NCBI GenBank assembly: GCA_964434195.1
Contig: CAYSUI010000001.1
Location: 79,833 to 143,832 of the forward strand
DNA from: an uncultured Candidatus Saccharibacteria bacterium
GTDB lineage: Bacteria > Patescibacteriota > Doudnabacteria > UBA920
Reading direction: 5' to 3'
DNA: 64,000 bases
The notes under the pieces are model-generated. The model saw nothing but the letters and a program-made list of their open reading frames with translations, did no database searches and was not told the DNA's origin. The translations under genes and the position numbers were made by a program. Every line of letters begins with the position of its first letter. The first letter of the stretch is position 1. Below, piece by piece: positions 3,057 through 44,250 of the stretch.

Positions 3057-4136
3057 TTGGGCATGGAAATGGATATTTACAGACATATATTATATAGAGT
3101 AAATGAGTGGCGAGGAGCAGTTTTGGAAAAACTCATCTCTAAATTCGGAAACGAGCTATCGGTTTTGAAGGCTGATAAAAAAGCTTTAGTAGATTTTGGA
3201 TTAAGTGAGTTACTGGCTATTAGAATATCGGATGCTTTATCTAAATTTGAACCTGAGACTGAGCAAAACTTACTTAATAATCAGGGAATAAAAATTTTAT
3301 CTCCAAGCAATCCCAACTTCCCAACCCTACTGAGACAAGTAGATGATTCACCTGGGATACTCTATTACCGTGGAGATATCTCTATTTTGAGCAAGAGGTG
3401 TTTATCCGTAGTTGGCTCAAGAAGAGTGAGTGGTTATGGGCAAAGTGCTATGCAGAAAATATTTCCTCAGGTTGTCAAAAGTGAAATTGTTACTGTATCT
3501 GGCCTAGCTTATGGTGTAGATGGATTAATCGCAAAAATAGCTGTTGAAAACAAATTTCCAACAGTAGCTGTACTCGGAGGAGGTATAGACAAAAATAGCA
3601 TTTATCCTAAAACTCATGTATTACTTTCGGAAAGGATAATAGAAAATTGTGGATGCTTAGTTTCTGAATACCCACCTGGTACTCCCCCGCTCCCCCATCA
3701 TTTCGTAGCCAGAAATAGAATAATAGCCGGACTAAGCGAAGCTACCTTAGTAGTTGAAGCAGCCCAGAAAAGTGGCTCTCTAATTACAACAGATTTTGCT
3801 TTAAGTAACGGGAGAGATGTTCTTGCTATACCGAGCCCAATTACTAATGAAAATTCCGAAGGCAGTAACAAACTCATAAAGGATGGTGCGCGTGTGGTGA
3901 CATGTGCTCAAGATATACTTGAGATATATGGTATAGTAGAATCACAAGAAAATTCGCATGTACTTAACAAAATAGAAAGCGAATTGTTTGAAATAATCTC
4001 TAATCAACCCACAGAAGTGGACACCTTAATAGAACAATCTGGTTATAACTTTTCGGAAGTGCTTACTACAATAACTAATTTGGAGTTAATAAAATTAATT
4101 AAAAAACTACCAACTGGCGAATATATAAAAGTATGA
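3057..4136 (+). CDS. dprA: DNA processing protein DprA (Smf)
   Basis: Rossmann-like DprA core (SVVGSRRVSGYG...GLAYGVDGLIAKIA...LIT). Track start is TTG. An ATG at 3063 is an alternative start. Confidence 0.75.
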   Translation: MGMEMDIYRHILYRVNEWRGAVLEKLISKFGNELSVLKADKKALVDFGLSELLAIRISDALSKFEPETEQNLLNNQGIKILSPSNPNFPTLLRQVDDSPGILYYRGDISILSKRCLSVVGSRRVSGYGQSAMQKIFPQVVKSEIVTVSGLAYGVDGLIAKIAVENKFPTVAVLGGGIDKNSIYPKTHVLLSERIIENCGCLVSEYPPGTPPLPHHFVARNRIIAGLSEATLVVEAAQKSGSLITTDFALSNGRDVLAIPSPITNENSEGSNKLIKDGARVVTCAQDILEIYGIVESQENSHVLNKIESELFEIISNQPTEVDTLIEQSGYNFSEVLTTITNLELIKLIKKLPTGEYIKV

Positions 4137-5305
4137 ACGCTAAAAAAATAATACCGATTATTATCGGGATACTCTTTGCACTTGCAATTGCATTTGGCCT
4201 GATTCAAAGAAATAATAGTCCAGAACTTGAAAGCTTAAAGGCTTCACCGCAGCTTACAAGCCAGACAACCAATGGATCGTTTAACGATATTTTCCATACT
4301 GCGGAGAGTTTAAAAAATCAACAAGAGCAGGGAGTTCTCGCCACTACGTTTATTGCGGGTGGCGATATTAGTTTGTCTAGAAATATTGCTTATGTTATAG
4401 ACCAGAAAAAAGATCCATTAATTCCATTTTCTGGTGTAGCCAACCTATTATCATCAACTGATTTTAATTTCGCCAACCTGGAAACTCCATTTTCTAATTC
4501 TGATTTTTATACCCCTAAAAATACGCTAGTATTTAATGCACCGAAAAAAAATATTGAGGGGTTGGTGAAATACAATTTCAAAATAGTTAATCTTGCGAAT
4601 AATCATGCATTTGATCAGGGATTAATTGGTTTAAAGACAACGAGAGATTGGTTGGATAAAAATAATATTGCCCATATAGGAACCGGGGAAACTCTTACGG
4701 AAGCTAACACACCAAAAGTAGTCACGAGCAATGGAATAAGGATATTATTTATGGGATTTTCTTATTCTTCTATTAATGACGGAGGTAAAGCAAGAAATAA
4801 CTATGTAGCTCGTATGGAAGATTTTGTTGAGGATGTAAAATCTGGCAGTAATCCGGTGAGTTTCTGGAAAAAAGAGTTGGGAGCAGACTATGCGGTAGTA
4901 ACCATGCACGGTGGGATTGAATATACCAGACAACCAGATAAACTACAGACTGAGTTTGCAAGAAGCGCTATTGATGCCGGTGCGGATATGGTTATAGGCG
5001 CTCACCCACACTGGGTTCAAACAATAGAGAAATACAATGGAAGATATATATTTTATTCACTGGGAAATTTTATATTTGATCAAAATTGGAGCAAGGAAAC
5101 CTCTGAGGGGTTACTTTTAAAAATCAGCTTGAATAAAAAGCCTGTCTCAGAATTACAAGGCAACCCGGTTAATGCCCAACTCAAAGAAGTAGAACTGATA
5201 CCAATAATAATAGAGAACAACTCAACACCTAGACCAGCGAATGAGAAAGAGAGAATTGAAATATTAAAAAAAATAAAAATGGATACAAATAAACTGTATC
5301 CTTAA
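4133..5305 (+). CDS. CapA-family (poly-gamma-glutamate synthesis-like) metallophosphoesterase, membrane-anchored
   Basis: N-terminal transmembrane (TM) helix. Calcineurin-like phosphoesterase motifs (GGDISL, NLANNH, MHGGIEY, GAHPHWVQ) typical of the CapA/PgsA family. Confidence 0.7.
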   Translation: MNAKKIIPIIIGILFALAIAFGLIQRNNSPELESLKASPQLTSQTTNGSFNDIFHTAESLKNQQEQGVLATTFIAGGDISLSRNIAYVIDQKKDPLIPFSGVANLLSSTDFNFANLETPFSNSDFYTPKNTLVFNAPKKNIEGLVKYNFKIVNLANNHAFDQGLIGLKTTRDWLDKNNIAHIGTGETLTEANTPKVVTSNGIRILFMGFSYSSINDGGKARNNYVARMEDFVEDVKSGSNPVSFWKKELGADYAVVTMHGGIEYTRQPDKLQTEFARSAIDAGADMVIGAHPHWVQTIEKYNGRYIFYSLGNFIFDQNWSKETSEGLLLKISLNKKPVSELQGNPVNAQLKEVELIPIIIENNSTPRPANEKERIEILKKIKMDTNKLYP

Positions 5306-9259: not shown

Positions 9260-9817
9260 TTACTTTAAACCTGATTCTGTTAAAGAGTGCCTACCTCCAG
9301 TGACACTTCCTGTTTTGTCGCTTACACAGAAAGTGATCGTATATTTATCGGTAGCTGAAGAGGTATAGACATAATCGTTCCAAGTAAAACTACCATTTGC
9401 CTCGCTACAACGCGAACCTGCTGGTAGAGAACCGTCATCTGCTGGCTTTGGAGAAGGCTGAAATTGAGCCAAATAGACTGTACCAGAGGCTACAGAGGTT
9501 AGACCTATACCACCGTTTGGAGAAACTCCATTACTTGTCCCGCAAGTTGTTGCCGTACCACTATATAAAGAAAGGCTACCACTTAATACAATGGGACCGG
9601 TTTGTGGAAAACCATTACACGTATTTTGATATAACGACAAAGCACTAGCTAGTTGAGTTACATCGCTTAATCTCTTTGCATTCCTGGCTTTAGTTCTCGA
9701 ATTCGAAAGCGCAACCAATACGACAGATGCGAGCAGGCCAATAATGGCAATAACTACTAAGAGTTCTATAAGTGTAAAACCTTTTGTGGAAAAATTTTGT
9801 TTCTTTAGACCTTGCAT
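9260..9817 (-). CDS. type IV pilin-like protein (prepilin with class III signal peptide)
   Basis: N-terminus KGFTLIELLVVIAIIGLLASVV is the canonical prepilin cleavage/methylation motif (G|FTLIE). Confidence 0.85.
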   Translation of the reverse strand: MQGLKKQNFSTKGFTLIELLVVIAIIGLLASVVLVALSNSRTKARNAKRLSDVTQLASALSLYQNTCNGFPQTGPIVLSGSLSLYSGTATTCGTSNGVSPNGGIGLTSVASGTVYLAQFQPSPKPADDGSLPAGSRCSEANGSFTWNDYVYTSSATDKYTITFCVSDKTGSVTGGRHSLTESGLK

Positions 9818-9940
9818 TCCATGATTTAAGACCGTTTTGTAATTATTTTAATTATAGCATACTTGCAATAATATCTAATTTATAATAATTTATAGACCTT
9901 TGTTGGTCACCTAACCAAATAGCCTGAGGAGGTAAGCAAA

Positions 9941-10573
9941 ATGAGTATGGGTTTTACGTTGCAGCAAGAACTTACACTGAAACATACTACTCGCCTTTCT
10001 GCCAAACTTCGTGCGGAAGTTGAGCAGGTTTTGAGTTTGCGACTTGGAATGCTTGTGGATGTGTGGCGAGAATACCGCTATGAACCAAGAGCAATTTGCC
10101 CGGGCTGTAGCCACCCGCTTACATTGGCTCAGATTGAAGCGGGTTTCTCTGATAGCCCCACAAACCATGCAGTGAAGTGTCCGTTGTGCAGCAGTCCGTT
10201 TTATGCGGAGCTGGTAAGCAAAACGAAGACCGGGCACATTGTAGCTGGGCATTATTATTGCAAACAGCAGACACTGCATGAGATTCGGGAACATTACGCA
10301 AAATCCCCTTCCGACTTTGAAGCAAAGATGAAGGATATATATCTATCTGCGCTTCGGCATTTTGGGAGTTTGAAAACCGCTTTTCGCCAGCTTGGTGTAA
10401 AGTATGGTTTTGCCGAAACCCCCAAATGGAAAGAAGTTGCTAGGGAATTTGTAGGGAAATTACCGGATACGGTTATCGCCAAAGAGCTGGAAGTACCGGC
10501 GAGAATTATTCGGCGGTTCCGTAACAGCCTTGGGGTTTCAAGGTTTGTGAAAAGCGATGCGCTTGAGAGTTAA
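9941..10573 (+). CDS. hypothetical protein with Zn-ribbon (CPGC..CPLC) and C-terminal HTH-like segment; higher GC
   Basis: 210-aa ORF. Two CxxC pairs. C-terminus KLPDTVIAKELEVPARIIRRFRNSLGV resembles an HTH. GC clearly above neighbours by eye. Confidence 0.5.
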   Translation: MSMGFTLQQELTLKHTTRLSAKLRAEVEQVLSLRLGMLVDVWREYRYEPRAICPGCSHPLTLAQIEAGFSDSPTNHAVKCPLCSSPFYAELVSKTKTGHIVAGHYYCKQQTLHEIREHYAKSPSDFEAKMKDIYLSALRHFGSLKTAFRQLGVKYGFAETPKWKEVAREFVGKLPDTVIAKELEVPARIIRRFRNSLGVSRFVKSDALES

Positions 10574-10706
10574 TACTCTCTTTTTTAATATAAACTTAAT
10601 ACTCAGATGTTAAATTAAAATGAGTTTATTGTTGACATTTTTCGATTTTTTATGTATAGTAATTGATAAAATTTTTTCAATTTTTGTACAGTGTAACGGA
10701 GGTGTT

Positions 10707-11261
10707 ATGAAACCGAAAGAAATTTTGCCTTCTGGTAAGTACGGTGTAATTTTACCTGGAAGCGACTTGATCCCCAATGAGAGTGACCCAGATTTTCCCC
10801 ACATCCGAGAAGAGCTCAGGAAGAGAGGCATCATATGGTATGAACGAGCATTTGGAAGGAGTACAGTTTTCTGGTTCTTAGGTGAAGAGGCGTTAAAGTT
10901 ACCTGAGGATCCTGAAGGCGTGAATGAAGGAAATCAGTATCTGCAATATCTTCCAGTCTCTGATGACTGTGGAGGTCATGGAATTGGAAGCTTGGATGAT
11001 TTTCTGGCAGCGAACCCGGGTGAGGATCTTAAGTCTCCGAAATACGGTGAATTATTGGTGCTTGGTAAATGCTATTGTTATATGGAACTAATAGCATATG
11101 CTCCATTCAGAAATGCTGTTACTAAAACAGTTCCACTAAACGGCAACTGTGGTTTCTGTAACGCAAGCATAAGAGCTTCCTTAGTTTACGAAGAAGACAA
11201 GACCAGTCCTTATGGCTGGAAAATAACTGTGGAAAATTTCACTGCAACTCCGCGAAAATAA
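10707..11261 (+). CDS. hypothetical protein
   Basis: ORF with ATG at 10707 preceded by GGAGG. The track's 10620 start adds an unlikely hydrophobic leader. No motif recognised. Confidence 0.45.
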   Translation: MKPKEILPSGKYGVILPGSDLIPNESDPDFPHIREELRKRGIIWYERAFGRSTVFWFLGEEALKLPEDPEGVNEGNQYLQYLPVSDDCGGHGIGSLDDFLAANPGEDLKSPKYGELLVLGKCYCYMELIAYAPFRNAVTKTVPLNGNCGFCNASIRASLVYEEDKTSPYGWKITVENFTATPRK

Positions 11262-11320
11262 TTTTCGCGATTTTTTTATTTTGACCAAAATGAAAACCTC
11301 CGGGCAGGAGACTTTCTTTT

Positions 11321-11640
11321 TGCTGGGCTGAGTGGGTGTGCTATAAATCTCCCTTGGAGCCCTACCCAAGGGAAGTTTTGGCACAGGCAAAGCCAGATGC
11401 CAAAACTAGTTCGATCCCCTTTCCTACATCAACCAAAAAGAAAACCTCCGATGCAGGAGGCTTTCTTTTTGGTGGTCTGCTATATATGGGGCTAGCGTCG
11501 CCCCCTCCACCGGGCTAAGCCCTAAGTGGAGCCACCCCTTCTCGCACCCTGGGTGCTAATATTATTTAAATCCCTAACTTACTTCACCAATAATAAAACC
11601 TCCTGCACCGGAGGTTTTATTATTGGTGGGCTGAATAGGT
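11321..11640. repeat. array of three tRNA-Lys 3'-end-like core repeats (att-like scars), each with a flanking hairpin
   Basis: tgctgggctgagtgggt (11321-11337), tggtggtctgc (11470-11480) and tggtgggctgaataggt (11624-11640) resemble the last 17 nt of tRNA-Lys (tggtgggttcggtgggg). Each is preceded by an aaaacctcc...ggagg hairpin. The same module is seen at 16275-16422. Confidence 0.5.
11588..11630. repeat. 43-nt direct repeat, left copy; identical to 16387-16429
   Basis: caataataaaacctcctgcaccggaggttttattattggtggg occurs identically 4799 bp downstream abutting tRNA-Lys. Contains a perfect hairpin aaaacctcc-tgcacc-ggaggtttt. Confidence 0.8.
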
Positions 11641-11786
11641 CATTACTCGAATACGTACGCAATGCGACGGAAAAACTAACAAAAACTCAAAGGTTTGCTT
11701 GGGAAAATTGCTATACGCAATTAATTACAGCGAGGTTAATAAAAGACACGATTCCGGTTGCTGTATAAGTGTTGAGTTCAAACTTT

Positions 11787-13247
11787 TTATAAAATATTAG
11801 ACGACATGGGTGCTGGTGCTGTAAACGGCTGCTTCCTCGGTAATGCGAGGCAAAATACTGTGGAAATCAAGATTATGAATAATGATGCCCCAACGGTCCA
11901 TAATGTGCTATTAGCTATGTTACCGTAAATGAATAATGGTATACCAATTAAGAAAGATACTAATACACCCCAAAACACGCCCTTTTCACTTAACTTATCC
12001 CAATACAAGCTTAAAACTGTTGGTACAACCACACATGCGGCTATGGTGTTGAATACCCACCATAGCTGTTTCAGTCCAAAATTAGGGATATAAACGGCTG
12101 CGAGAGCAACTAGTAGACCTAAGATAGTTACACCAAACATAGAATAGCGCGCTGCGCGAATAGCTCCTTTATCGTCTTTAGATTTAACCACATCTGTTAC
12201 CCAGAGAGAGCCAATAGCAGATAGTCCTGCGTCTAAAGCAGACGTTAGACCGGCTAATAGCATAACCACGAACAGCGATACCGCCCAAAGTGGCAAAAGC
12301 GTTGCAACAACCTGCACTCCCACCATTGAAGCGTCAATTCCAGTTGGCAGACTTATATGTAGGTTAGGGTTGGCCGCTAAAAATCCTAGGGTCGACAAAC
12401 CTATCGGCACAAGACCAAAAAGAATTGAGCCAAAGATAAATGCTTTTACTACTTTACCCTCTTTAATAGCAAACGCACGTTGCCAGTTAGACTGGTCGGA
12501 AATTGAGCCGGCCAGTAAACCAATGGAAGTAACTATGCCAAAAGAAAATGCCACACCGGGGTCAAATATGTTGCCAATGTTTTGTATACCGTGAAAACCA
12601 GCGCTAATGGCGCTAAAGCCGCCCGCCGCACTCCAAGCCAAGGGTAAAATAATAATACCTATAAGATAAATTAACCCTAACTGCACAAAGTCCGTAATTA
12701 TAGAGGCTTGAAATCCTGAAATTAAAGTATAAATTAATACGATACCGGCTAAAATTGGCATTATGGTCGTAAGGGGTATGCCAGTAAGTAAAGAAAGTAA
12801 ACTACCGCCAGCAAACAGCTGAACGACTACTGCCATTAGTTGATAGAAGAGATAGGGAAACAAAAATACTTTGTGCACTCGGTCGCTTTCGAGTCGATAT
12901 TTAATATATTGGGTAAATGTATACCCTTGTGGCAGTCGCGCGCGTATTCGGGGAGCAAAAATAGCGAAAATCAGCAAAGCTAAAATATTTGGTAATGTAA
13001 ACCAAAAGATGCCGGCCAAGCCCTGCTGGTATGCGACCTGCACAGAAACAAATAACGCCGGTGCCCATATCCAAGAAGAGGCAATGCTAAAACCTCCTAA
13101 GACCCATCCCACTTTTCTATTAGCTAGTAAAAAACCTTCTTTTGTTTGCCAGTTTTGTCTTTTTGAAAAATAGTAAGTGAACCAAGTAATAATTATGGCA
13201 AAGAACGTTAGAAACCAATAGCCGGTTGCTTGTGATACAAAGCCCAT
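11787..13247 (-). CDS. sodium:solute symporter family transporter
   Basis: 486-aa polytopic membrane protein with about 13 TM helices. N-terminal region is typical of the SSS family. Higher GC than the flanking core genes. Confidence 0.6.
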   Translation of the reverse strand: MGFVSQATGYWFLTFFAIIITWFTYYFSKRQNWQTKEGFLLANRKVGWVLGGFSIASSWIWAPALFVSVQVAYQQGLAGIFWFTLPNILALLIFAIFAPRIRARLPQGYTFTQYIKYRLESDRVHKVFLFPYLFYQLMAVVVQLFAGGSLLSLLTGIPLTTIMPILAGIVLIYTLISGFQASIITDFVQLGLIYLIGIIILPLAWSAAGGFSAISAGFHGIQNIGNIFDPGVAFSFGIVTSIGLLAGSISDQSNWQRAFAIKEGKVVKAFIFGSILFGLVPIGLSTLGFLAANPNLHISLPTGIDASMVGVQVVATLLPLWAVSLFVVMLLAGLTSALDAGLSAIGSLWVTDVVKSKDDKGAIRAARYSMFGVTILGLLVALAAVYIPNFGLKQLWWVFNTIAACVVVPTVLSLYWDKLSEKGVFWGVLVSFLIGIPLFIYGNIANSTLWTVGASLFIILISTVFCLALPRKQPFTAPAPMSSNIL

Positions 13248-13336
13248 ATAAATAATTTAAGGTTGATTTATTAAGGCTTATTCTATATACTATTGAGTGA
13301 GTGGCAAATACCACCACTTTTATATAATTTTATGCT

Positions 13337-14086
13337 ATGTACAGAGAAATACTTGAAGAATTAGGACTATCCCCTAACGAAGCCAAAATATACGAGGGTC
13401 TGCTTGATATTGGTATGGCCAGTGTCCCGGAAATCTCATTAAAAATTGGAGTACACAAACGGAATGTGTACGATATTATTCCCAAACTTTTAAAAAAGGG
13501 GTTAATTTACCAAATCGCAGATACGAAAGAAAATAAGTATGCACCATTAGAACCGGCTAAGTTATCGGATTTAATTTGGGAGAAGGAAGCAAAGTTAAAA
13601 AGTATTTTACCCGCACTAAAAAGACAATTTAAAAAAACCGCAACCGGTGAGGCGGTTTATATTTATAAAGGCGTAGAGGGTTTTAAGAACTACTTGAGGG
13701 ACATTTTGGAAGTCGGTGAAGATGTTTATTTCATAGGAGCGAAGGGCGGTTGGTTTGATAAGGATTTACAGACTTTTATAAAAAAGTTCTTAAGGCAAGC
13801 AAAAGAAAAGAAAATTAAGTATTATCATATATTCGATGCGGAAGTTAAGAACCTCGCGCCAGATTTACCAACAGCACTTGGTAAGCCGTATAGGTTTTTG
13901 CCGCCCGGGTATTCAACGACTGGCGCTATAGATATTTTTGGCGACCATATTGTTACTTTTTCTGGACTTACTCTGAAAAATATTACCGATGACATTACAT
14001 TGGTCGTTATTATAAATAAAGAGCTTGCAGATTGTTACCGCACTTGGTTTCGCTTTATGTGGGACCATTGCAAAGTGGAAAAATAA
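13337..14086 (+). CDS. TrmB-family transcriptional regulator
   Basis: N-terminal winged HTH (LGLSPNEAKIYEGLLDIGMASVPEISLKIGVHKRNVYDIIPKLLKKGLI) typical of TrmB sugar-responsive regulators, plus a C-terminal effector-like domain. Confidence 0.65.
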   Translation: MYREILEELGLSPNEAKIYEGLLDIGMASVPEISLKIGVHKRNVYDIIPKLLKKGLIYQIADTKENKYAPLEPAKLSDLIWEKEAKLKSILPALKRQFKKTATGEAVYIYKGVEGFKNYLRDILEVGEDVYFIGAKGGWFDKDLQTFIKKFLRQAKEKKIKYYHIFDAEVKNLAPDLPTALGKPYRFLPPGYSTTGAIDIFGDHIVTFSGLTLKNITDDITLVVIINKELADCYRTWFRFMWDHCKVEK

Positions 14087-14087
14087 G

Positions 14088-14876
14088 CTAGACCCTTGAA
14101 GGTCGAAGTTTTTGTACAGGTTTTTTCTTGGACGACCCGATACTTTTTTTGGGTTTCTTGGGAGTAACTAAGCTTTTTTGGCAATCAAATGACTGCACCC
14201 AAACATTTGGAATCCTTTGAAAAGTTTCTTTTATTAGGGCAATATTTTCTGCTTCGTTGTTATTTATGACAAGCAAAATACCATGTGTTGCGTAGTAACC
14301 TTTCATGTACCTTTCCATGCTGGAGTATGAGGGCGAAGCAGTAAGGACTAGACCTTTCAGGTCGGAATTGGAAGTTAACTTAACTTCAACGATTACCGGA
14401 CCGACGAAACCGTACCTTACAAAAAAATCAGTCTTTTTTCCGTCTAGTAACTCTGGCTCACGCATAACCTCAACCTGGAAACCACGCTTAAGTAAAATAT
14501 TCTCTGCTTGTGCTTTTAGTGTTTTTTGAACTAATTTTTCATACTCTTGCCGTTTCGCTGCATACACTTTTTCTCCCAGAATCAGGTCATAAGCACCTTC
14601 TCCTTCAATCCACCGCCTTAGGTCTGTCTCTAAAGCATCCTGCAAATGACGGAACAAGTCGTCAGAGGTAACAATCTTTTTATCGTCGTACTCCCGTGCA
14701 TTATTGTATCTTTTTACCGCTTCGGATATATTTCGAGGCTTCCCAAGATACGCTAAATAAGAACGACGCAGGTTTACCATACGCCCCGCGAGCCAATTTG
14801 CACCTTGTCGGTCTTTCATCTCGGCTATCTTAGCTTCTAATAAGCCCAAGGGCGTATATGAGCGTTTTTCCTTCAA
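14088..14876 (-). CDS. hypothetical protein occupying the position of the missing recombinase catalytic domain
   Basis: 262-aa ORF with a basic K-rich C-terminal tail. A possible PD-(D/E)xK-like segment (DFFVRYGFVGPVIVEVK) is speculative. Confidence 0.4.
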   Translation of the reverse strand: MKEKRSYTPLGLLEAKIAEMKDRQGANWLAGRMVNLRRSYLAYLGKPRNISEAVKRYNNAREYDDKKIVTSDDLFRHLQDALETDLRRWIEGEGAYDLILGEKVYAAKRQEYEKLVQKTLKAQAENILLKRGFQVEVMREPELLDGKKTDFFVRYGFVGPVIVEVKLTSNSDLKGLVLTASPSYSSMERYMKGYYATHGILLVINNNEAENIALIKETFQRIPNVWVQSFDCQKSLVTPKKPKKSIGSSKKKPVQKLRPSRV

Positions 14877-16285
14877 GTTATCGAAATATGAATAAACAAT
14901 CTCCCAAAGGTAGGAAGCGTATGCTTGAGGGCGTTCTTTCGAGCGTTGCAGAGTTTTTCTCTTTGCAAAGTGGAGAAAAAGTAAAAACAGGCATGAAGCA
15001 AAAACTTAAAGAAGGCCTTTGGCCGACTGGAGCATCGTACGGATACAAGAACGTGCGAGAAAAATTATCTACTGGTAAAGTGCGTTCTTGGGTGGAAATA
15101 AATTGGGAAGAAGCTAAATGGGTAATTCGAGCTTTTGAATTATTCGCTACGGGTAATTATTCCACCATATCTCTCGCCCAAATACTTCGCCAGGAAGGGT
15201 TTCCAGTAAGAAAATATAAGAGAGGGAATGACAAATTACATGCAAGCTTTATCGAAAGGCTTTTACGCAATAAGTTTTTTATAGGCATTATCGAATGGGA
15301 CGGCCTTGTTAATCCCAATGGTAAACATGAGCTCTTTTTAGACCGTCAACTTTTCGACAAAGTACAAAGTATCTTAGATATGCGTCTAGGTGGAGGTAGC
15401 AGAAAGCGTAAGCATTTTTCTATACTTAAAGGCCCTGCTTTCTGCCAAGAGTGCAATAGCAGGATTACAATGGATGTTAAAGAAACTACTACTCAAACTA
15501 TACGATACCTTCGTTGTTTGAAGTCACAAAATAGCGAGCGTGTTCAGTGCTCCCAGGAGTACCCCCATGAACTAGAGATTCTAAAGCAAGTAGACGAATT
15601 ACTTAGGCAAATAAAACTCAAAGATACCTTTGTTATAAAATTACGGAAACGTATTAGAAAAACGTTTGCCGATGAGCAGCAGGTTTATGAAAGAGCGCGA
15701 ATGGATATTTTGAATATAACAGAAGAAATAAAACGCAAGAAAAAGAATCTTGTTCTACAAATGATAAGCAAGGACAACGCTTCAACAGAAGACTTGGACA
15801 TATTTGCGAGCGTCCAAGACGAGCTTAATGTTGAAGAGAAGTACCTTAATGAACAACTGGAGAAAATTGAAAATAAAATTACCAGCGTGGTTAGAACGAT
15901 TCAGATTGCATTAGCTATCGCCACAGACTGCCATTATGCGTACAAAAAGGCTGAACCAGAATTGAAGGCTATGCTTATACAGACATTATTCAAAAAGATT
16001 TATATTCGGGACAAACAAATAACCCAAGTAGTTCTAAATGAACCCTTGGATTATTTGTGTCTAAAGAGGTTACAGAAAAACCCCGTATTCGATTTAACTT
16101 CAAATGGTGGGTCGAGTGGGGATCGAACCCACGACAAACGGCTTAAAAGGCCGCTGGCGCTATATACCTGGGATCCGGTAAACCGGCCCCAGGACGTGAA
16201 CAACGGCAAAGCCGCTGTTCACTCCCTAAAGGGGTATTCGCAGCGGCTTAAAATTTGTATCCAAAATTTTTACTTGGTGGGCTGA
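14858..16285 (+). pseudogene. large serine recombinase lacking the N-terminal catalytic (resolvase) domain
   Basis: Begins inside the alphaE region (VAEFFSLQSGEKVKTGMKQ) followed by the recombinase-domain motif GLWPTGASYGYKN, a Cys zinc ribbon (CQEC...C...C) and a coiled-coil. No catalytic Ser domain upstream. The 3' end reads through a tRNA-Lys fragment, so the true stop is unclear. Confidence 0.55.
16106..16156. repeat. 51-nt partial copy of the tRNA-Lys 3' half (att-like direct repeat)
   Basis: tggtgggtcgagtggggatcgaacccacgacaaacggcttaaaaggccgctg matches the 3' 51 nt of the tRNA-Lys gene at 16423-16473 with about 3 mismatches. Lies 267 bp distal to the intact tRNA. Confidence 0.75.
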
Positions 16286-16386
16286 GTGGGTTTACTATAT
16301 ATCGCCCCGAAGTGGATTCGGGGCAGAACCCAGAACCGGGAAACCCGGATTCTGGGTTCTTGTTCGATCCCTTAACTAATATCAAC
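16275..16386. repeat. att-like module: tRNA-Lys 3'-core copy, ctatatat, nested hairpins and a gttcgatccc motif
   Basis: tggtgggctgagtgggt at 16275-16291. Nested hairpin gaacccagaa-ccggg-aaa-cccgg-a-ttctgggttc. Same module architecture as 11321-11478. Confidence 0.5.
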
Positions 16387-16429
16387 CAATAATAAAACCT
16401 CCTGCACCGGAGGTTTTATTATTGGTGGG
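16387..16429. repeat. 43-nt direct repeat, right copy; overlaps the 3' end of tRNA-Lys
   Basis: Identical to 11588-11630. Its last 7 nt (tggtggg) are the CCA and acceptor end of tRNA-Lys on the minus strand. Confidence 0.8.
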
Positions 16430-16498
16430 TTCGGTGGGGATCGAACCCACGACAAACGGCTTAAAAGGCCGCTGCTCTACCGACTGAGCTACGAACCC
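16423..16498 (-). tRNA. tRNA-Lys (anticodon TTT), CCA encoded
   Basis: The reverse complement of 16423-16498 folds as a cloverleaf. Acceptor GGGTTCG/CGAACCC, anticodon stem GCGGC/GCCGT, anticodon loop CTTTTAA, T-loop TTCGATC, 3' ACCA. Confidence 0.9.
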
Positions 16499-16760
16499 TC
16501 GTCATACTTGTTTCCGGGTTGCGCGAGCCGTCTGCTATCGCAGACAACTCACTCCACCCTACACCAAGTACTCCTCTTCCCCAAATACCTTATTGCTATG
16601 GTTTTAAAAAGACTCTTCGAATCTTTTTAAAACATTAAGGTAATCAAGCTATTTGGGGGACCCCCGTATGGGGAAAGGGATATTTGAAACGATCTTTCAT
16701 AGTTTACTGAAAAGTGGAGAAAAATTCAAGGGAATAAAAAATACGCTATTTTAGCGTAGG

Positions 16761-17159
16761 TTATTTGTTTAGAGTCAGTCCGGTGGGGTTTGGGACATAG
16801 TACAGGGTGTAGACCCACCAGTGTTCTTTGTCGTGGAGGAGGTCTACGTTTATGTATGTACCACCGCCCAACTGATGGACTATCTTGTACCCATAAAGCG
16901 TGAAGTCGCCCTTTACCTTGTCTGTCTGTGGGACGCTTAGGTGGGCCATATACGTCTTAGGCAGGGATACGTAGGCGCTCATTGGGTAAATGCGGCTACT
17001 TTTCACGTCGGGGGTTTCTTTCTCGAATACCCTTACTAACTGCCAGACTTCGGGCGCTTCCGAGAGAATGGCTTTGTATAGAGCCATTTGAAAAGCTCCA
17101 CCGAGAAAACGAAGACCCATAAGTGTTGGAATGTTCAGTTGTTCCCAAGGTTTGATCAT
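16761..17159 (-). CDS. hypothetical protein; higher GC
   Basis: 132-aa ORF whose start overlaps the stop of the upstream lipoprotein gene by 4 nt (ATGA), so likely an operon. No motif recognised. Confidence 0.45.
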   Translation of the reverse strand: MIKPWEQLNIPTLMGLRFLGGAFQMALYKAILSEAPEVWQLVRVFEKETPDVKSSRIYPMSAYVSLPKTYMAHLSVPQTDKVKGDFTLYGYKIVHQLGGGTYINVDLLHDKEHWWVYTLYYVPNPTGLTLNK

Positions 17160-17881
17160 TTTGCCTCACTTACTGCTAATAGTAGTGGTTCGAGTTGGGG
17201 TTTTACTTCGTCCCAACTGTAGATGAGGCTTTTGTGGATGCGGATTTGGCCCTTGTGACCACCGTCTTCGAAGCCGTCGTAGGAATCAATTCCTGGTATG
17301 GCCAATACCTTATCCCAGTCCGGCTTAGCGGTGTTGGGAATATAGACGGTGTCTATTCGGCACTGAAACTGCGAGCCTTTCCAAGCATCGCAGTCGTTTG
17401 AGCTTGTGAGATTGTTGATGCCATGGGTCAGGCTTACCGGTTTGCCTAGCGTGCATTCGACGAATTTCTTGATTTCCGAAATTTCGGAATCAATTTTTTC
17501 TTTGTTAAGCACGTCGTCGTAATAGTCTACGAATAGACGATGTTTATACATATGCACCGAGGACACACCGGGACGCTTTGCGAGTTCGTCTGCCAAGTAC
17601 GAGGGTCCGGGAATGTAGACTTCGCTGTTTTGGAATGCTCCCGACACGCCCATGATATTGTTATGAAACTGTGTAGGCAAGGTGTCTCGGGTTTCTACCC
17701 AAAATCCACAGTACTTACGAGTATGGGCGTCTACAAAAGTACTCCACGCGACACTACCGAACGAAATAGTGCCCGGGCTTTGTTTTTGTTTGGTACATGA
17801 AGGTAGCCCCACAAATACCACACAAAGCACGACCACAAACTGAATTACCAGGTTTCTGGTTTTTTTCATTTCTTCCTCCAA
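17156..17881 (-). CDS. putative lipoprotein (hypothetical); higher GC
   Basis: N-terminal signal peptide with lipobox-like LPSC. 241 aa. GC about 50% by eye versus about 38% for core genes. Confidence 0.5.
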   Translation of the reverse strand: MEEEMKKTRNLVIQFVVVLCVVFVGLPSCTKQKQSPGTISFGSVAWSTFVDAHTRKYCGFWVETRDTLPTQFHNNIMGVSGAFQNSEVYIPGPSYLADELAKRPGVSSVHMYKHRLFVDYYDDVLNKEKIDSEISEIKKFVECTLGKPVSLTHGINNLTSSNDCDAWKGSQFQCRIDTVYIPNTAKPDWDKVLAIPGIDSYDGFEDGGHKGQIRIHKSLIYSWDEVKPQLEPLLLAVSEAK

Positions 17882-43741: not shown

Positions 43742-43828
43742 GGGCCAGTGGTGAAATTGGCATACACGTACGCTTCAGGTGCGTATGAGCGCAAGCTCGT
43801 GAGGGTTCAAGTCCCTCTTGGCCCACCA
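43742..43828 (+). tRNA. tRNA-Leu (anticodon CAG), long variable arm, CCA encoded
   Basis: Acceptor GGGCCAG/TTGGCCC, anticodon stem TACGC/GCGTA with loop TTCAGGT, long variable arm, T-loop TTCAAGT, 3' ACCA. Confidence 0.85.
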
Positions 43829-43920
43829 ACAAAAATAACGAGAAGTATTCTCGTTGTTTTTGTTTTCAGAAAAAAAAATACCCCAGTTAATTTACCAGGG
43901 CTGTCTTTCGACAAAAATAA

Positions 43921-44003
43921 TCTCGGTGAGGGGATTTGAACCCCTATGGATTTCTCCACACGCTCCTAAGGCGTGCGCGTCTACCTAGTTTCGCCACACC
44001 GAG
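43921..44003 (-). tRNA. tRNA-Leu (anticodon TAG), long variable arm
   Basis: Reverse complement: acceptor CTCGGTG/CACCGAG, anticodon stem CACGC/GCGTG with loop CTTAGGA, long variable arm, T-loop TTCAAAT. No encoded CCA. Confidence 0.85.
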
Positions 44004-44006
44004 AAA

Positions 44007-44080
44007 CGCTTCAGGAGGGACTCGAACCCACGACCCTCGGTTTAGGAAACCGATGCTCTATCCTTCTGAGCTACTGAAGC
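44007..44080 (-). tRNA. tRNA-Arg (anticodon CCT)
   Basis: Reverse complement: acceptor GCTTCAG/CTGAAGC, anticodon stem TCGGT/ACCGA with loop TTCCTAA, T-loop TTCGAGT. 3 nt from the previous tRNA. Confidence 0.8.
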
Positions 44081-44082
44081 AA

Positions 44083-44155
44083 TGCTCCCCACGGGACTTG
44101 AACCCGCAACCAGCCGATTATGAGTCGGATGCTCTAACCATTGAGCTAAGGGAGC
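44083..44155 (-). tRNA. tRNA-Met (anticodon CAT, elongator or Ile2-type)
   Basis: Reverse complement: acceptor GCTCCCT/GGGGAGC, anticodon loop CTCATAA, T-loop TTCAAGT. Lacks the three consecutive G-C pairs of an initiator anticodon stem. Confidence 0.8.
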
Positions 44156-44178
44156 TGAAATGAATTCCTCCTAATAAA

Positions 44179-44250
44179 TATCCCGGGAGGGACTTGAACC
44201 CCCGACCACCTGCTTGTAACGCAGACGCTCTACCACTGAGCTACCGGGAC
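44179..44250 (-). tRNA. tRNA-Val (anticodon TAC)
   Basis: Reverse complement: acceptor GTCCCGG/CCGGGAT, D-arm GCTC..GAGC, anticodon stem TCTGC/GCAGG with loop GTTACAA, T-loop TTCAAGT. Confidence 0.75.

Follow-up and report, generated by a model that had tools for sequence, protein, structure and literature searches.

A tRNA-Lys gene of a Doudnabacteria contig as a probable landing pad for a decayed serine-recombinase element and short hairpin-rich units

In a stretch of 64,000 nucleotides (hereafter the window; positions 79,833 to 143,832 of contig CAYSUI010000001.1, assembly GCA_964434195.1, of an uncultured Candidatus Saccharibacteria bacterium placed by GTDB in Doudnabacteria), several copies resembling the end of a tRNA-Lys gene are found on the 3' side of that gene. 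We suggest, with a probability of about 60%, that this side of tRNA-Lys is a landing pad for recombination that was used several times, leaving behind the relic of an integrative element of the large-serine-recombinase (LSR) family and a number of earlier, short units. The locus is of a fairly ordinary kind, i.e. a tRNA-linked integration hotspot with relics, and the preliminary description, in which repeated integration at the tRNA end followed by decay was proposed, was partly right. Integration hotspots at tRNA genes are textbook knowledge; what is unusual here is the recombinase family and the small units, which are unexplained.

The tRNA-Lys(UUU) gene lies on the minus strand at 16423-16498, where it had originally been placed, with its 3' end, including an encoded CCA, facing left. 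It is detected by ARAGORN and by the Rfam tRNA model (75.8 bits), and in the alignment all positions of the acceptor stem (GGGUUCG/CGAACCC) are paired. This is a functional gene, which together with the hairpin on its left would constitute an intact attB-like site (hairpin - TGGTGGG - tRNA). The repeats at the locus are real and non-random. With up to three mismatches, the 17-mer TGGTGGGCTGAGTGGGT occurs at 16275 (0), 11321 (1), 11624 (2) and 16105 (3), i.e. four times versus 0.04 expected, and the rest of the 64 kb contains none. Hairpins of the form AAAACCTCC..GGAG were found at four sites of the window, all of them at this locus (0 expected), and the tail GTTCGATCCC..ATCAACC at two window sites only, 11409 and 16362. 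The 17-nt cores reported earlier at 16275, 11321 and 11624 are therefore present, whereas the one at 11470 is reduced to about 10 nt (TGGTGGTCTG). The copy of the tRNA 3' half had been recognized correctly: 16105-16156 is identical to tRNA-Lys at 49 of 52 positions, and Rfam reports a weak tRNA (33.3 bits) at 16108-16169. A direct repeat described as 43 nt long is indeed identical in both copies, but it extends over 45 nt (11586-11630 = 16385-16429). A dispersed miniature inverted-repeat transposable element, the alternative raised at the outset, found no support, as the window copies are confined to 11.28-11.64 and 16.1-16.43 kb and, in nine other loci considered below, units of this kind always follow tRNA-Lys.

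The comparison with related loci makes it likely that the 3' side of tRNA-Lys is an insertion hotspot. A genome collection was scanned with a 39-nt stretch of tRNA-Lys, which yielded 23 loci (designated with L numbers, as are the other loci mentioned below), mostly from Doudnabacteria and other Patescibacteria. In 12 of these, tRNA-Lys is flanked by homologues of the pilin gene and/or of the genes o278, o293 and o183. The pilin gene is located no more than about 330 nt from tRNA-Lys in the relatives versus 6.6 kb in the window (9817 to 16423), and in L010, L031, L013, L014, L015 and L016 the pilin gene, tRNA-Lys and o278/o293 are found within a few hundred nucleotides, while the extra genes of the window are absent. 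Because the genes that are tightly linked in the relatives are separated by a 6.6-kb gap in the window, the locus behaves as a hotspot, in agreement with the original proposal. No counterparts of o210, o213, the SSF-family gene, the orphan open reading frame (ORF), the recombinase, o132 or o241 were found in the 12 syntenic loci, and relatives carrying the same genes at this tRNA, which the preliminary description had considered as an alternative outcome, do not occur among them. The sole related find is a partial match to a TrmB-like protein (41% over 94 aa) in L014, about 3 kb from its tRNA-Lys. The syntenic relatives are distant (approximately 60% protein identity for o293). The base composition of the 11.6-16.1 kb region is not atypical, its GC content of 0.35-0.46 being like that of the flanks. 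The relatives sharing the acceptor stem of the window differ at this site: L023 carries another unit type, L010 is empty, and the contig of L028 ends 31 nt past the tRNA.

The region includes what is very probably a decayed LSR integrative element of about 4.47 kb (~11631-16104, plus strand), which was placed there because both of its ends are homologous to intact elements. On the left, window positions 11623-11720 match the far end of the intact element in L152 (1409-1506; 72.5%, E 1e-7, blastn), and on the right, positions 14921-16110 match the LSR genes of L152, L156, L157 and L158 up to the tRNA (blastn). The far ends of the elements in L152, L153 and L156 contain a tRNA-like stretch, then GGTCATTACTCGAATACGTACG and, about 60 nt later, TGGGAAAATTGCTAT; the latter two motifs are present in the window at 11638-11714. 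The far ends of the tRNA-Lys-linked intact elements in L162 and L163 were looked for and not located. The element is flanked by the 7-nt core TGGTGGG (i.e. CCCACCA, the CCA end of the tRNA) at 11624-11630 and 16105-16111; the cores of intact elements are likewise short (TAATGGGCG in L153 and GTGGACC in L152).

The recombinase gene (14900-16104, plus strand) occupies the right end of the element. BLASTP analysis revealed 65% identity, over 402 aa, to residues 116-515 of the intact 522-aa homologue P0003. The Recombinase domain (PF07508, 1e-8) and the zinc ribbon (PF13408, 1.3e-4) are retained, and no Resolvase domain was found. As the first 115 residues are lost, including the YLRVSTDKQ motif with the catalytic serine, the gene is, as judged from its sequence, dead, a relic and not an active member of its family. 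By homology this is the LSR family: among the 94 homologues of the relic, the full-length ones (512-610 aa) contain Resolvase PF00239, PF07508 and PF13408, and the NCBIfam matches of the family, to XisF and CcrA, are weak. Seven loci with an intact recombinase gene were retrieved, and in all of them this gene runs up to the 3' end of a convergent tRNA gene that is itself intact, namely Ala-UGC (L152, L156, L157, L158), Val-GAC (L153) and Lys-UUU (L162, L163). The intact members of the family, of 520-590 aa, have their stop-codon region on the CCA end of the tRNA. The truncated serine recombinase noticed in the preliminary description is thus, according to its intact homologues, the relic of a true tRNA-end-specific integrative element.

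The tRNA target of further members can be recognized from C-terminal read-through peptides (..GGSGGDRTHDKWLKRPLLYRLSY corresponds to tRNA-Lys), and it seems that members of this family have been retargeted to Ala, Val, Lys and other tRNAs via an altered tRNA-mimic arm. Over-long recombinase annotations that read on antisense to the adjacent tRNA were observed for P0020, P0024, P0026, P0029 and others, which flags a routine error, the extension of recombinase ORFs through the antisense strand of a neighbouring tRNA. A second kind of tRNA remnant, derived from the 5' side, was noticed in L157, where repeated fragments of the tRNA-Ala 5' half (..TTTGCCAACTGAGCTAACGRCCCATC..) are located at 3950-4190, beside the LSR-bearing tRNA-Ala(UGC).

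The right junction of the element adjoins not the tRNA-Lys gene but its 3'-half copy, which belongs to a unit named Mpsi, whereas the left junction adjoins a copy of a terminator hairpin, T_c. The latter, together with the core TGGTGGG, represents the B arm and core of the left junction (11585-11630; inverted repeat, identity check), and Mpsi provides the B' arm of the right one. The pre-insertion site would have had the arrangement hairpin-TGGTGGG-tRNA-like, resembling attB. T_c and the core also make up the left copy of the identical 45-nt block. This repeat is the tRNA terminator hairpin plus CCCACCA of neighbouring units and not an element boundary.

The last codons of the relic, TTCGATTTAAC (FDLT, 16088-16098), coincide with the P half-site. 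The P' half-site CTGAATAGGTCATTACTCGAATACGTACG (11631-11660, plus strand) was read from the sequence, and GGTCATTACTCGAATACGTACG is identical in L152. Both half-sites are inverted with respect to each other (P GTATTCGAT.., P' ..ACTCGAATAC), and the reconstructed attP, ..GTATTCGATTTAACTTCAAA-TGGTGGG-CTGAATAGGTCATTACTCGAATAC.., is an imperfect inverted repeat, the left arm of which equals the FDLT codons of the recombinase. In the window as well as in L152, TCGAA is located 17-21 nt from the core in P' versus 12-16 nt in the tRNA arm. In structural work on the LI integrase-attP complex the outer motif reportedly lies 5 nt farther from the centre in attP-type than in attB-type half-sites. We predict an attP of the form TTCGAT..TGGTGG..TCGAATAC and a target composed of terminator, CCA and tRNA. 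The predicted restored site reads ..GGAGGTTTTATTATTGGTGGGTCGAGTGGGGATCG (T_c joined to Mpsi) and the predicted circle junction ..TTCGATTTAACTTCAAATGGTGGGCTGAATAGGTCATTAC.

The genes between the repeats had been listed correctly, as confirmed by the Pfam scan. They are a sodium:solute symporter gene (11787-13247, minus strand; Pfam SSF 1.2e-34, NCBIfam sss), which is cargo or a captured gene, a TrmB-family regulator gene (13337-14086, plus strand; Pfam TrmB 3.6e-13), the orphan ORF (14088-14876, minus strand) and the recombinase relic. The orphan ORF stands where the 5' part of the recombinase gene belongs; it is of the DUF8371 type (PF28130) according to a precomputed table, gave no match in the Pfam scan, and PHROGs contained no match for the orphan ORFs. 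A weak match (E 3e-6) was noted between this ORF and the NACHT antiphage protein HyoA, in the C-terminal part of the latter, and the ORF may encode a nuclease-like domain. The SSF gene, the TrmB gene and the orphan ORF are absent from the intact elements, which carry restriction-modification, HTH and other small genes. A scan of a viral-contig collection gave no relevant match.

The remaining part of the locus is made of four short units, M1, M2, Mpsi and M4 (112-170 nt), each described by the same scheme: a terminator, a tRNA-3'-like arm, a TATATAG box, two or three GC-rich hairpins of unrelated sequence and a TTCGATCCC tail mirroring the T-loop (GGGATCGAAC). The arms are 10, 17, 17 and ~55 nt long. 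Going downstream from the tRNA, one encounters in turn a hairpin, M4, Mpsi, the LSR element, a hairpin, M2, a hairpin, M1 and a last hairpin. The first of these hairpins, T_d (16385-16426), is a terminator-like inverted repeat with an 18-bp stem and a 6-nt loop. It comes immediately after the CCA of the tRNA and is located inside the right copy of the 45-nt block (16385-16429); a stem of the same type (AAAACCTCC/GGAGGTTTT) is present behind the tRNA-Lys genes of L010 and L031, two relatives with an empty site. Module M4 (16275-16386; fold z-score -9.7) consists of an arm (16275-16291), a CTATATAT box (16295-16302), hairpins at 16303-16324 and 16325-16360 and the tail GTTCGATCCC..ATCAACC (16362-16387). 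Its first 24 nt resemble the left (P') end of the LSR element, as none of 300 shuffled sequences reached the score, while for the first 17 nt of M1 the corresponding p value is about 0.05. Comparison of the unit tails with the P end revealed the collinear blocks TTCGAT/TTAACT/TCAA, without reaching significance (p = 0.07).

Module Mpsi (16105-16274; Rfam, alignment) has a tRNA-Lys half of 52-56 nt, from the anticodon stem to CCA (16105-16160), in the place where others have the 17-nt core. It is followed by CTATATAC (16160-16167), hairpins at ~16167-16193 and ~16196-16222 and a tail devoid of a hairpin terminator. The called recombinase ORF (14858-16285) is artificially long, as it continues across Mpsi and into the M4 arm. 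Over its final 20 nt, the tRNA half fits the tRNA-Lys allele of L011, L020 and L030 (19/20) better than the resident tRNA (17/20), and its acceptor strand would not pair with the 5' strand of the resident gene, therefore Mpsi appears to be foreign or element-borne. Module M2 (11470-11587; z-score -6.5) is degenerate and contains the 10-nt arm TGGTGGTCTG, a CTATATAT box, three GC hairpins and the tail TTTAAATCCC..TTCACC. Module M1 (11321-11435; z-score -7.6) is composed of the arm TGCTGGGCTGAGTGGGT, a CTATAAAT box, two hairpins and the tail GTTCGATCCCC..ATCAACC. The inverted repeat T_b (11432-11474) separates M1 from M2, and the most degenerate hairpin, T_a (11284-11322), marks the outer end of the array, beside the 3' end of the ORF at 10620-11261. 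The module layout of roughly 150 nt that had been proposed for every short copy is thus complete only in M1 and M4, while M2 is degenerate; at 11624 there is no module at all, since the core stands alone and is followed by the end of the recombinase element.

Units of comparable architecture were found directly behind tRNA-Lys in at least nine loci, i.e. in the genomes L017, L021, L023 and L030 and in the metagenomes L041, L054, L071, L107 and L129. The last five are the real units among the 120 matches listed in a metagenome scan, the other matches being high-GC coding DNA. In these loci the tRNA is followed by a hairpin, (G)UGGGGAUCGAA.., further hairpins, a copy of the last 17-20 nt of the tRNA, and another hairpin. 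The terminal copies are exact or near-exact and start at T-loop position 57/58; an exact 17-20-nt repeat reaching from there to CCA bounds the units in L017, L021, L071, L107, L129 and L041. In an alignment of four such units, 12 of 33 predicted pairs were changed on both sides, whereas the unpaired purine-rich segments (GGGGAUCGAAG, GGAGGAGA and GGGGGAGAAAGGA) remained constant. This argues against the view that the tandem modules are simply decaying scars, because similar units keep their hairpins; near the units of the other loci no recombinase was found. With a covariance model built on the best-defined unit type, M4 of the window scored 16.5 bits and plain tRNA-Lys genes 14-18 bits. As the model scores M4 no higher than tRNA-Lys, homology of the window units to that type was rejected and we regard them as a separate type sharing the same architecture. 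Strand bias was absent across 14 units: the counts of G-U pairs were 41 vs 49, and the folding energies -700 vs -685 kcal/mol.

Truncated or tandem copies occur in L107 and L023. In L022 two stacked distal copies match the tRNA-Lys alleles of other lineages, and one unit contains a protein gene. About 900-1250 nt downstream in L022, the order is tRNA, hairpin, an ORF for a TPR protein, GATCCCCTCCCGTCCCACCA (19/20 to the L107 allele) and a hairpin; after a further ~200 nt ATCTCCACCGGACCTACCA follows (17/19 to the L021 allele), and no recombinase was seen. A conserved 13-nt loop, TCAGCTTGTCTGG (TCAGCTGGTCTGG in L021), was observed in hairpins of L021, L030 (two) and L129 on different, co-varying stems. 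It is placed after the unit in L021 and after the tRNA in L129, and the terminators of empty sites do not have it. In L041 the tRNA-Lys(CUU) gene (~2131-2203) has no encoded CCA (..CCCGACCCA|TAAAAA), while the copy in the unit at 1982-2085 ends with ..CCCGACCCACCA.

Based on these observations, the following sequence of events may be proposed. In this LSR family the recombinase gene is the last of the element, its final codons forming one predicted attP half-site (TTCGAT..), and the other end carries a tRNA-mimicking half-site (..TCATTACTCGAATAC). Strand exchange presumably takes place within the bases encoding the CCA end (TGGTGGG = CCCACCA); with the junction core in this position, the tRNA would be left intact and only a short core repeated. 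The LSR element would have entered a pre-existing tRNA-Lys 3'-half copy preceded by a terminator hairpin. M1, M2, Mpsi and M4 might be earlier arrivals of the same general kind, short and gene-less, stacked by site-specific recombination into att-like junctions. The tandem accretion of decayed elements (cis-mobilizable elements, CIMEs) at att sites, tRNA-Lys included, is documented (PMC5704250). Their tRNA-like arms would be element-borne mimics or foreign alleles and not pieces cut from the resident tRNA, and the 45-nt repeat would be the terminator-plus-CCA part common to two units, possibly homogenised by gene conversion. A function of the interior hairpins is probable; they could be a structured site for recombination or else small RNA cargo.

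For the units themselves the chance that they are accreted non-autonomous elements appears somewhat lower than even. That they are imported, stacked DNA is suggested by their patchy distribution and the different unit types at one site, by the truncated and tandem copies of L107 and L023, by the foreign alleles in the stacked copies of the window (Mpsi) and of L022, a point in favour of the preliminary description, by the resemblance of the first 24 nt of M4 to the LSR arm, and by the integration of the LSR element into the att-like junction of a unit, which is the pattern of CIME accretion. Several observations weigh against this interpretation. Past their first 17-24 nt the units do not significantly resemble the LSR ends (tails p = 0.07-0.7), and a terminator hairpin stands between tail and core at every unit junction, although simple LSR integration predicts none. 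In several units found elsewhere, the final 17-20 nt of the host's tRNA are copied without a mismatch, even though the acceptor stems differ between hosts; such units need an exact mimic, gene conversion or a mechanism different from that of a recombinase acting at the CCA end. The lack of a recombinase near those units must be added, as must the conserved unpaired segments and co-varying stems, which fit a functional RNA or a structured single-stranded DNA site. Finally, no empty or variant site of the same species was found; the contigs of the same strain in public runs all break at the repeats.

Among the other explanations, the one closest to the preliminary description would treat 11588-16429 as a single 4.8-kb island, inserted by an integrase that duplicated a 43-nt att across the tRNA end. 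Perfect direct repeats (45 nt) do flank this segment and a recombinase gene lies inside, yet the scenario is very improbable. The sole recombinase is an LSR, and serine-recombinase elements are flanked by very short repeats (PMC5704250), so that the junctions here are the 7-nt core and not the long repeat. Seven intact elements fix the right end at 16104/16105, i.e. 318 bp inside the right repeat. On the other side, the junction is contained in the final 7 nt of the left repeat, and the repeat itself is a host-type terminator plus CCCACCA with diverged copies at two further unit junctions. The segment is instead composed of the 4.47-kb LSR element and 318 bp of two older units, Mpsi and M4. 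It is also improbable, though less so, that the array grew where it stands, through tandem duplication of the 3' end of tRNA-Lys together with its terminator, palindrome extension by template switching at the terminator hairpin, and internal deletions, in which case the modules would be decaying pseudo-tRNA copies and no mobile elements besides the LSR element would be involved. All four hairpins share the stem AAAACCTCC/GGAGG, which is also present behind tRNA-Lys in L010 and L031, the unit tails mirror the T-loop and 3' end of the tRNA across the hairpin (GTTCGATCCC .. hairpin .. GGGGATCGAAC), the same CTATATA box adjoins tRNA-like pieces of all four lengths, and in L107 a stretch of more than 100 nt is duplicated exactly in tandem. 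However, inside their hairpins M1, M2, M4 and Mpsi have unrelated sequences while ends and terminators are conserved, unlike in neutral decay; the acceptor sequences of the arms (UCAGCCC, UCGACCC) never fit the resident tRNA and do fit those of other lineages; and similar architectures with compensatory stem changes occur in distant genomes.

A further possibility, which we regard as unlikely but as the strongest competitor of accretion, is that the modules are small structured RNA genes linked to tRNA-Lys, with their own terminators and tandemly duplicated, and that only the LSR element was mobile. The tRNA-like end would then serve for processing, stability or pairing with tRNA-Lys. The fold z-scores (-6.5 to -9.7), the pairs changed on both sides together with the preserved purine-rich unpaired segments, the terminator hairpin after each unit, the absence of a nearby recombinase, and a 5' motif (GUGGGGAUCGAA) complementary to the T-loop and T-stem of the tRNA are in favour of this, and M1 shows a weak RsaE-like layout below threshold. 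On the other hand, the units lack strand bias, their stems contain almost nothing but Watson-Crick pairs, like those of DNA palindromes, and no promoter passed in a consensus scan of the locus. Searches of the window and of the nine unit-bearing loci against Rfam 15 returned tRNA matches only, the best sub-threshold ones being RsaE (26.5 bits, gathering 79) and tmRNA_permuted (20.9 bits, gathering 47). The patchy distribution, the truncated and tandem copies, the several unrelated unit types at one site and the covariance score of M4 also speak against RNA genes. By analogy with integrons, a cassette platform anchored at tRNA-Lys, in which recombinases specific for tRNA ends, such as this LSR family, move the units in trans, might be imagined as well. 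Short structured units and, occasionally, a single gene like that of L022, each with a terminator hairpin and a tRNA-3'-end mimic as its boundaries, may be inserted, stacked and shuffled there, and the conserved hairpins may be structure-recognised recombination sites or small-RNA cargo. We consider this improbable, and accretion at the landing pad remains our preferred interpretation.

Some other candidates were rejected. ARAGORN found no tmRNA or two-piece tmRNA, as suggested by the CCA ends, and the permuted-tmRNA match of Rfam is far below threshold. Archaeal split-tRNA halves or archaeal TATA promoters do not apply, as the organism is bacterial (type IV pilin, Patescibacteria relatives). 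Group I introns are known in tRNAs of Patescibacteria (PMC13011429), but no Rfam intron match was obtained and the units are too short to be intron relics. A plus-strand small RNA driven by TTGNTG-16-TATATA was dismissed for want of a promoter in the consensus scan and of a strand signal. The start of the repeat at T-loop position 57 also brought to mind a TnpB/omega-RNA-like scaffold, with a 3' guide that matches tRNA-Lys beside a TTC motif, or a retroviral-type primer-binding site; no nuclease or reverse transcriptase is located near. A tRNA-like acceptor pairing of the unit ends (GGUUGA/UCAGCC) is possible in M1 and M4 and is not conserved in other genomes. The units are not internally deleted LSR elements either, as the similarity is limited to the first 17-24 nt.

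The locus can be compared with several known systems. It resembles tRNA islands and CIMEs (the ICESt1/ICESt3 model and the streptococcal tRNA-Lys composite islands) in the insertion on the 3' side without inactivation of the tRNA, the stacked tRNA-3'-like repeats, the decayed recombinase gene and the gene-less relics with att-like ends. In contrast to them, the window has a serine recombinase in place of a tyrosine integrase, its relics measure no more than 112-170 nt, are hairpin-rich and each end in a terminator hairpin, and comparable units elsewhere appear to be maintained (co-varying stems) and not decaying. With LSRs such as those of phiC31, Bxb1 and A118/LI, TnpX/TndX, CcrA and XisF, the family shares the Resolvase-Recombinase-zinc ribbon order of its intact homologues, a short common core, imperfect inverted attP half-sites and a 5-nt offset of the outer motif. 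Site-specific serine-recombinase elements usually disrupt dispensable protein genes (PMC5704250), whereas the target of this family is the very 3' end (CCA) of a tRNA gene, which is preserved; moreover, one of its attP half-sites equals the recombinase's own last codons (FDL), and its members are retargeted among tRNAs.

P4-type islands with tyrosine integrases are flanked by repeats of 16-20 bp, extending from the T-loop to the CCA end. The units of L017, L021, L071, L107, L129 and L041 are similar to them in being bounded by an exact repeat of this extent. However, no tyrosine integrase was seen at these loci, only ~160 bp lie between the repeats, and the arms of the window units are imperfect and 10-17 nt long. 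The likeness to integron cassette arrays (attC) consists in short units at one fixed site, conserved ends, variable hairpins with preserved structure and, in L022, a unit with a single ORF. It is an analogy only, as IntI, R/L boxes (GTTRRRY) and attI are all missing and an ORF is lacking in most units.

The LSR family was encountered mainly in Patescibacteria here, and it combines insertion at the CCA end without tRNA damage with an attP arm in the stop-codon region. The predicted attP/attB pairs of such natural, retargeted serine integrases could be useful for the annotation of mobile DNA in Candidate Phyla Radiation (CPR) genomes and as candidates for genome engineering. The gene-less, hairpin-rich units of 110-170 nt, recurring behind tRNA-Lys in many CPR genomes, might be site-specific mobile units of the smallest kind or, alternatively, a novel RNA.

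Some minor features of the surroundings were also recorded. The orientation of tRNA-Lys in L010, L012, L013, L014, L022 and L031 is opposite to that in the window, L015, L016, L021 and L028, although the neighbours are the same, which implies a local inversion of the tRNA gene. Possibly, this inversion is linked to the mirrored copies of the tRNA end around the terminator hairpin. The genes o210 and o213 (9941-11261) on one side and o132 and o241 (16761-17881) on the other have no family matches and no counterpart in the syntenic relatives, and to the right of tRNA-Lys the GC content is higher (0.44-0.49), so that DNA may have been inserted to the left of the gene as well as to its right. Elsewhere in the window, five tRNA genes (Leu-CAG, Leu-TAG, Arg-CCT, Met-CAT and Val-TAC) are clustered at 43742-44250.

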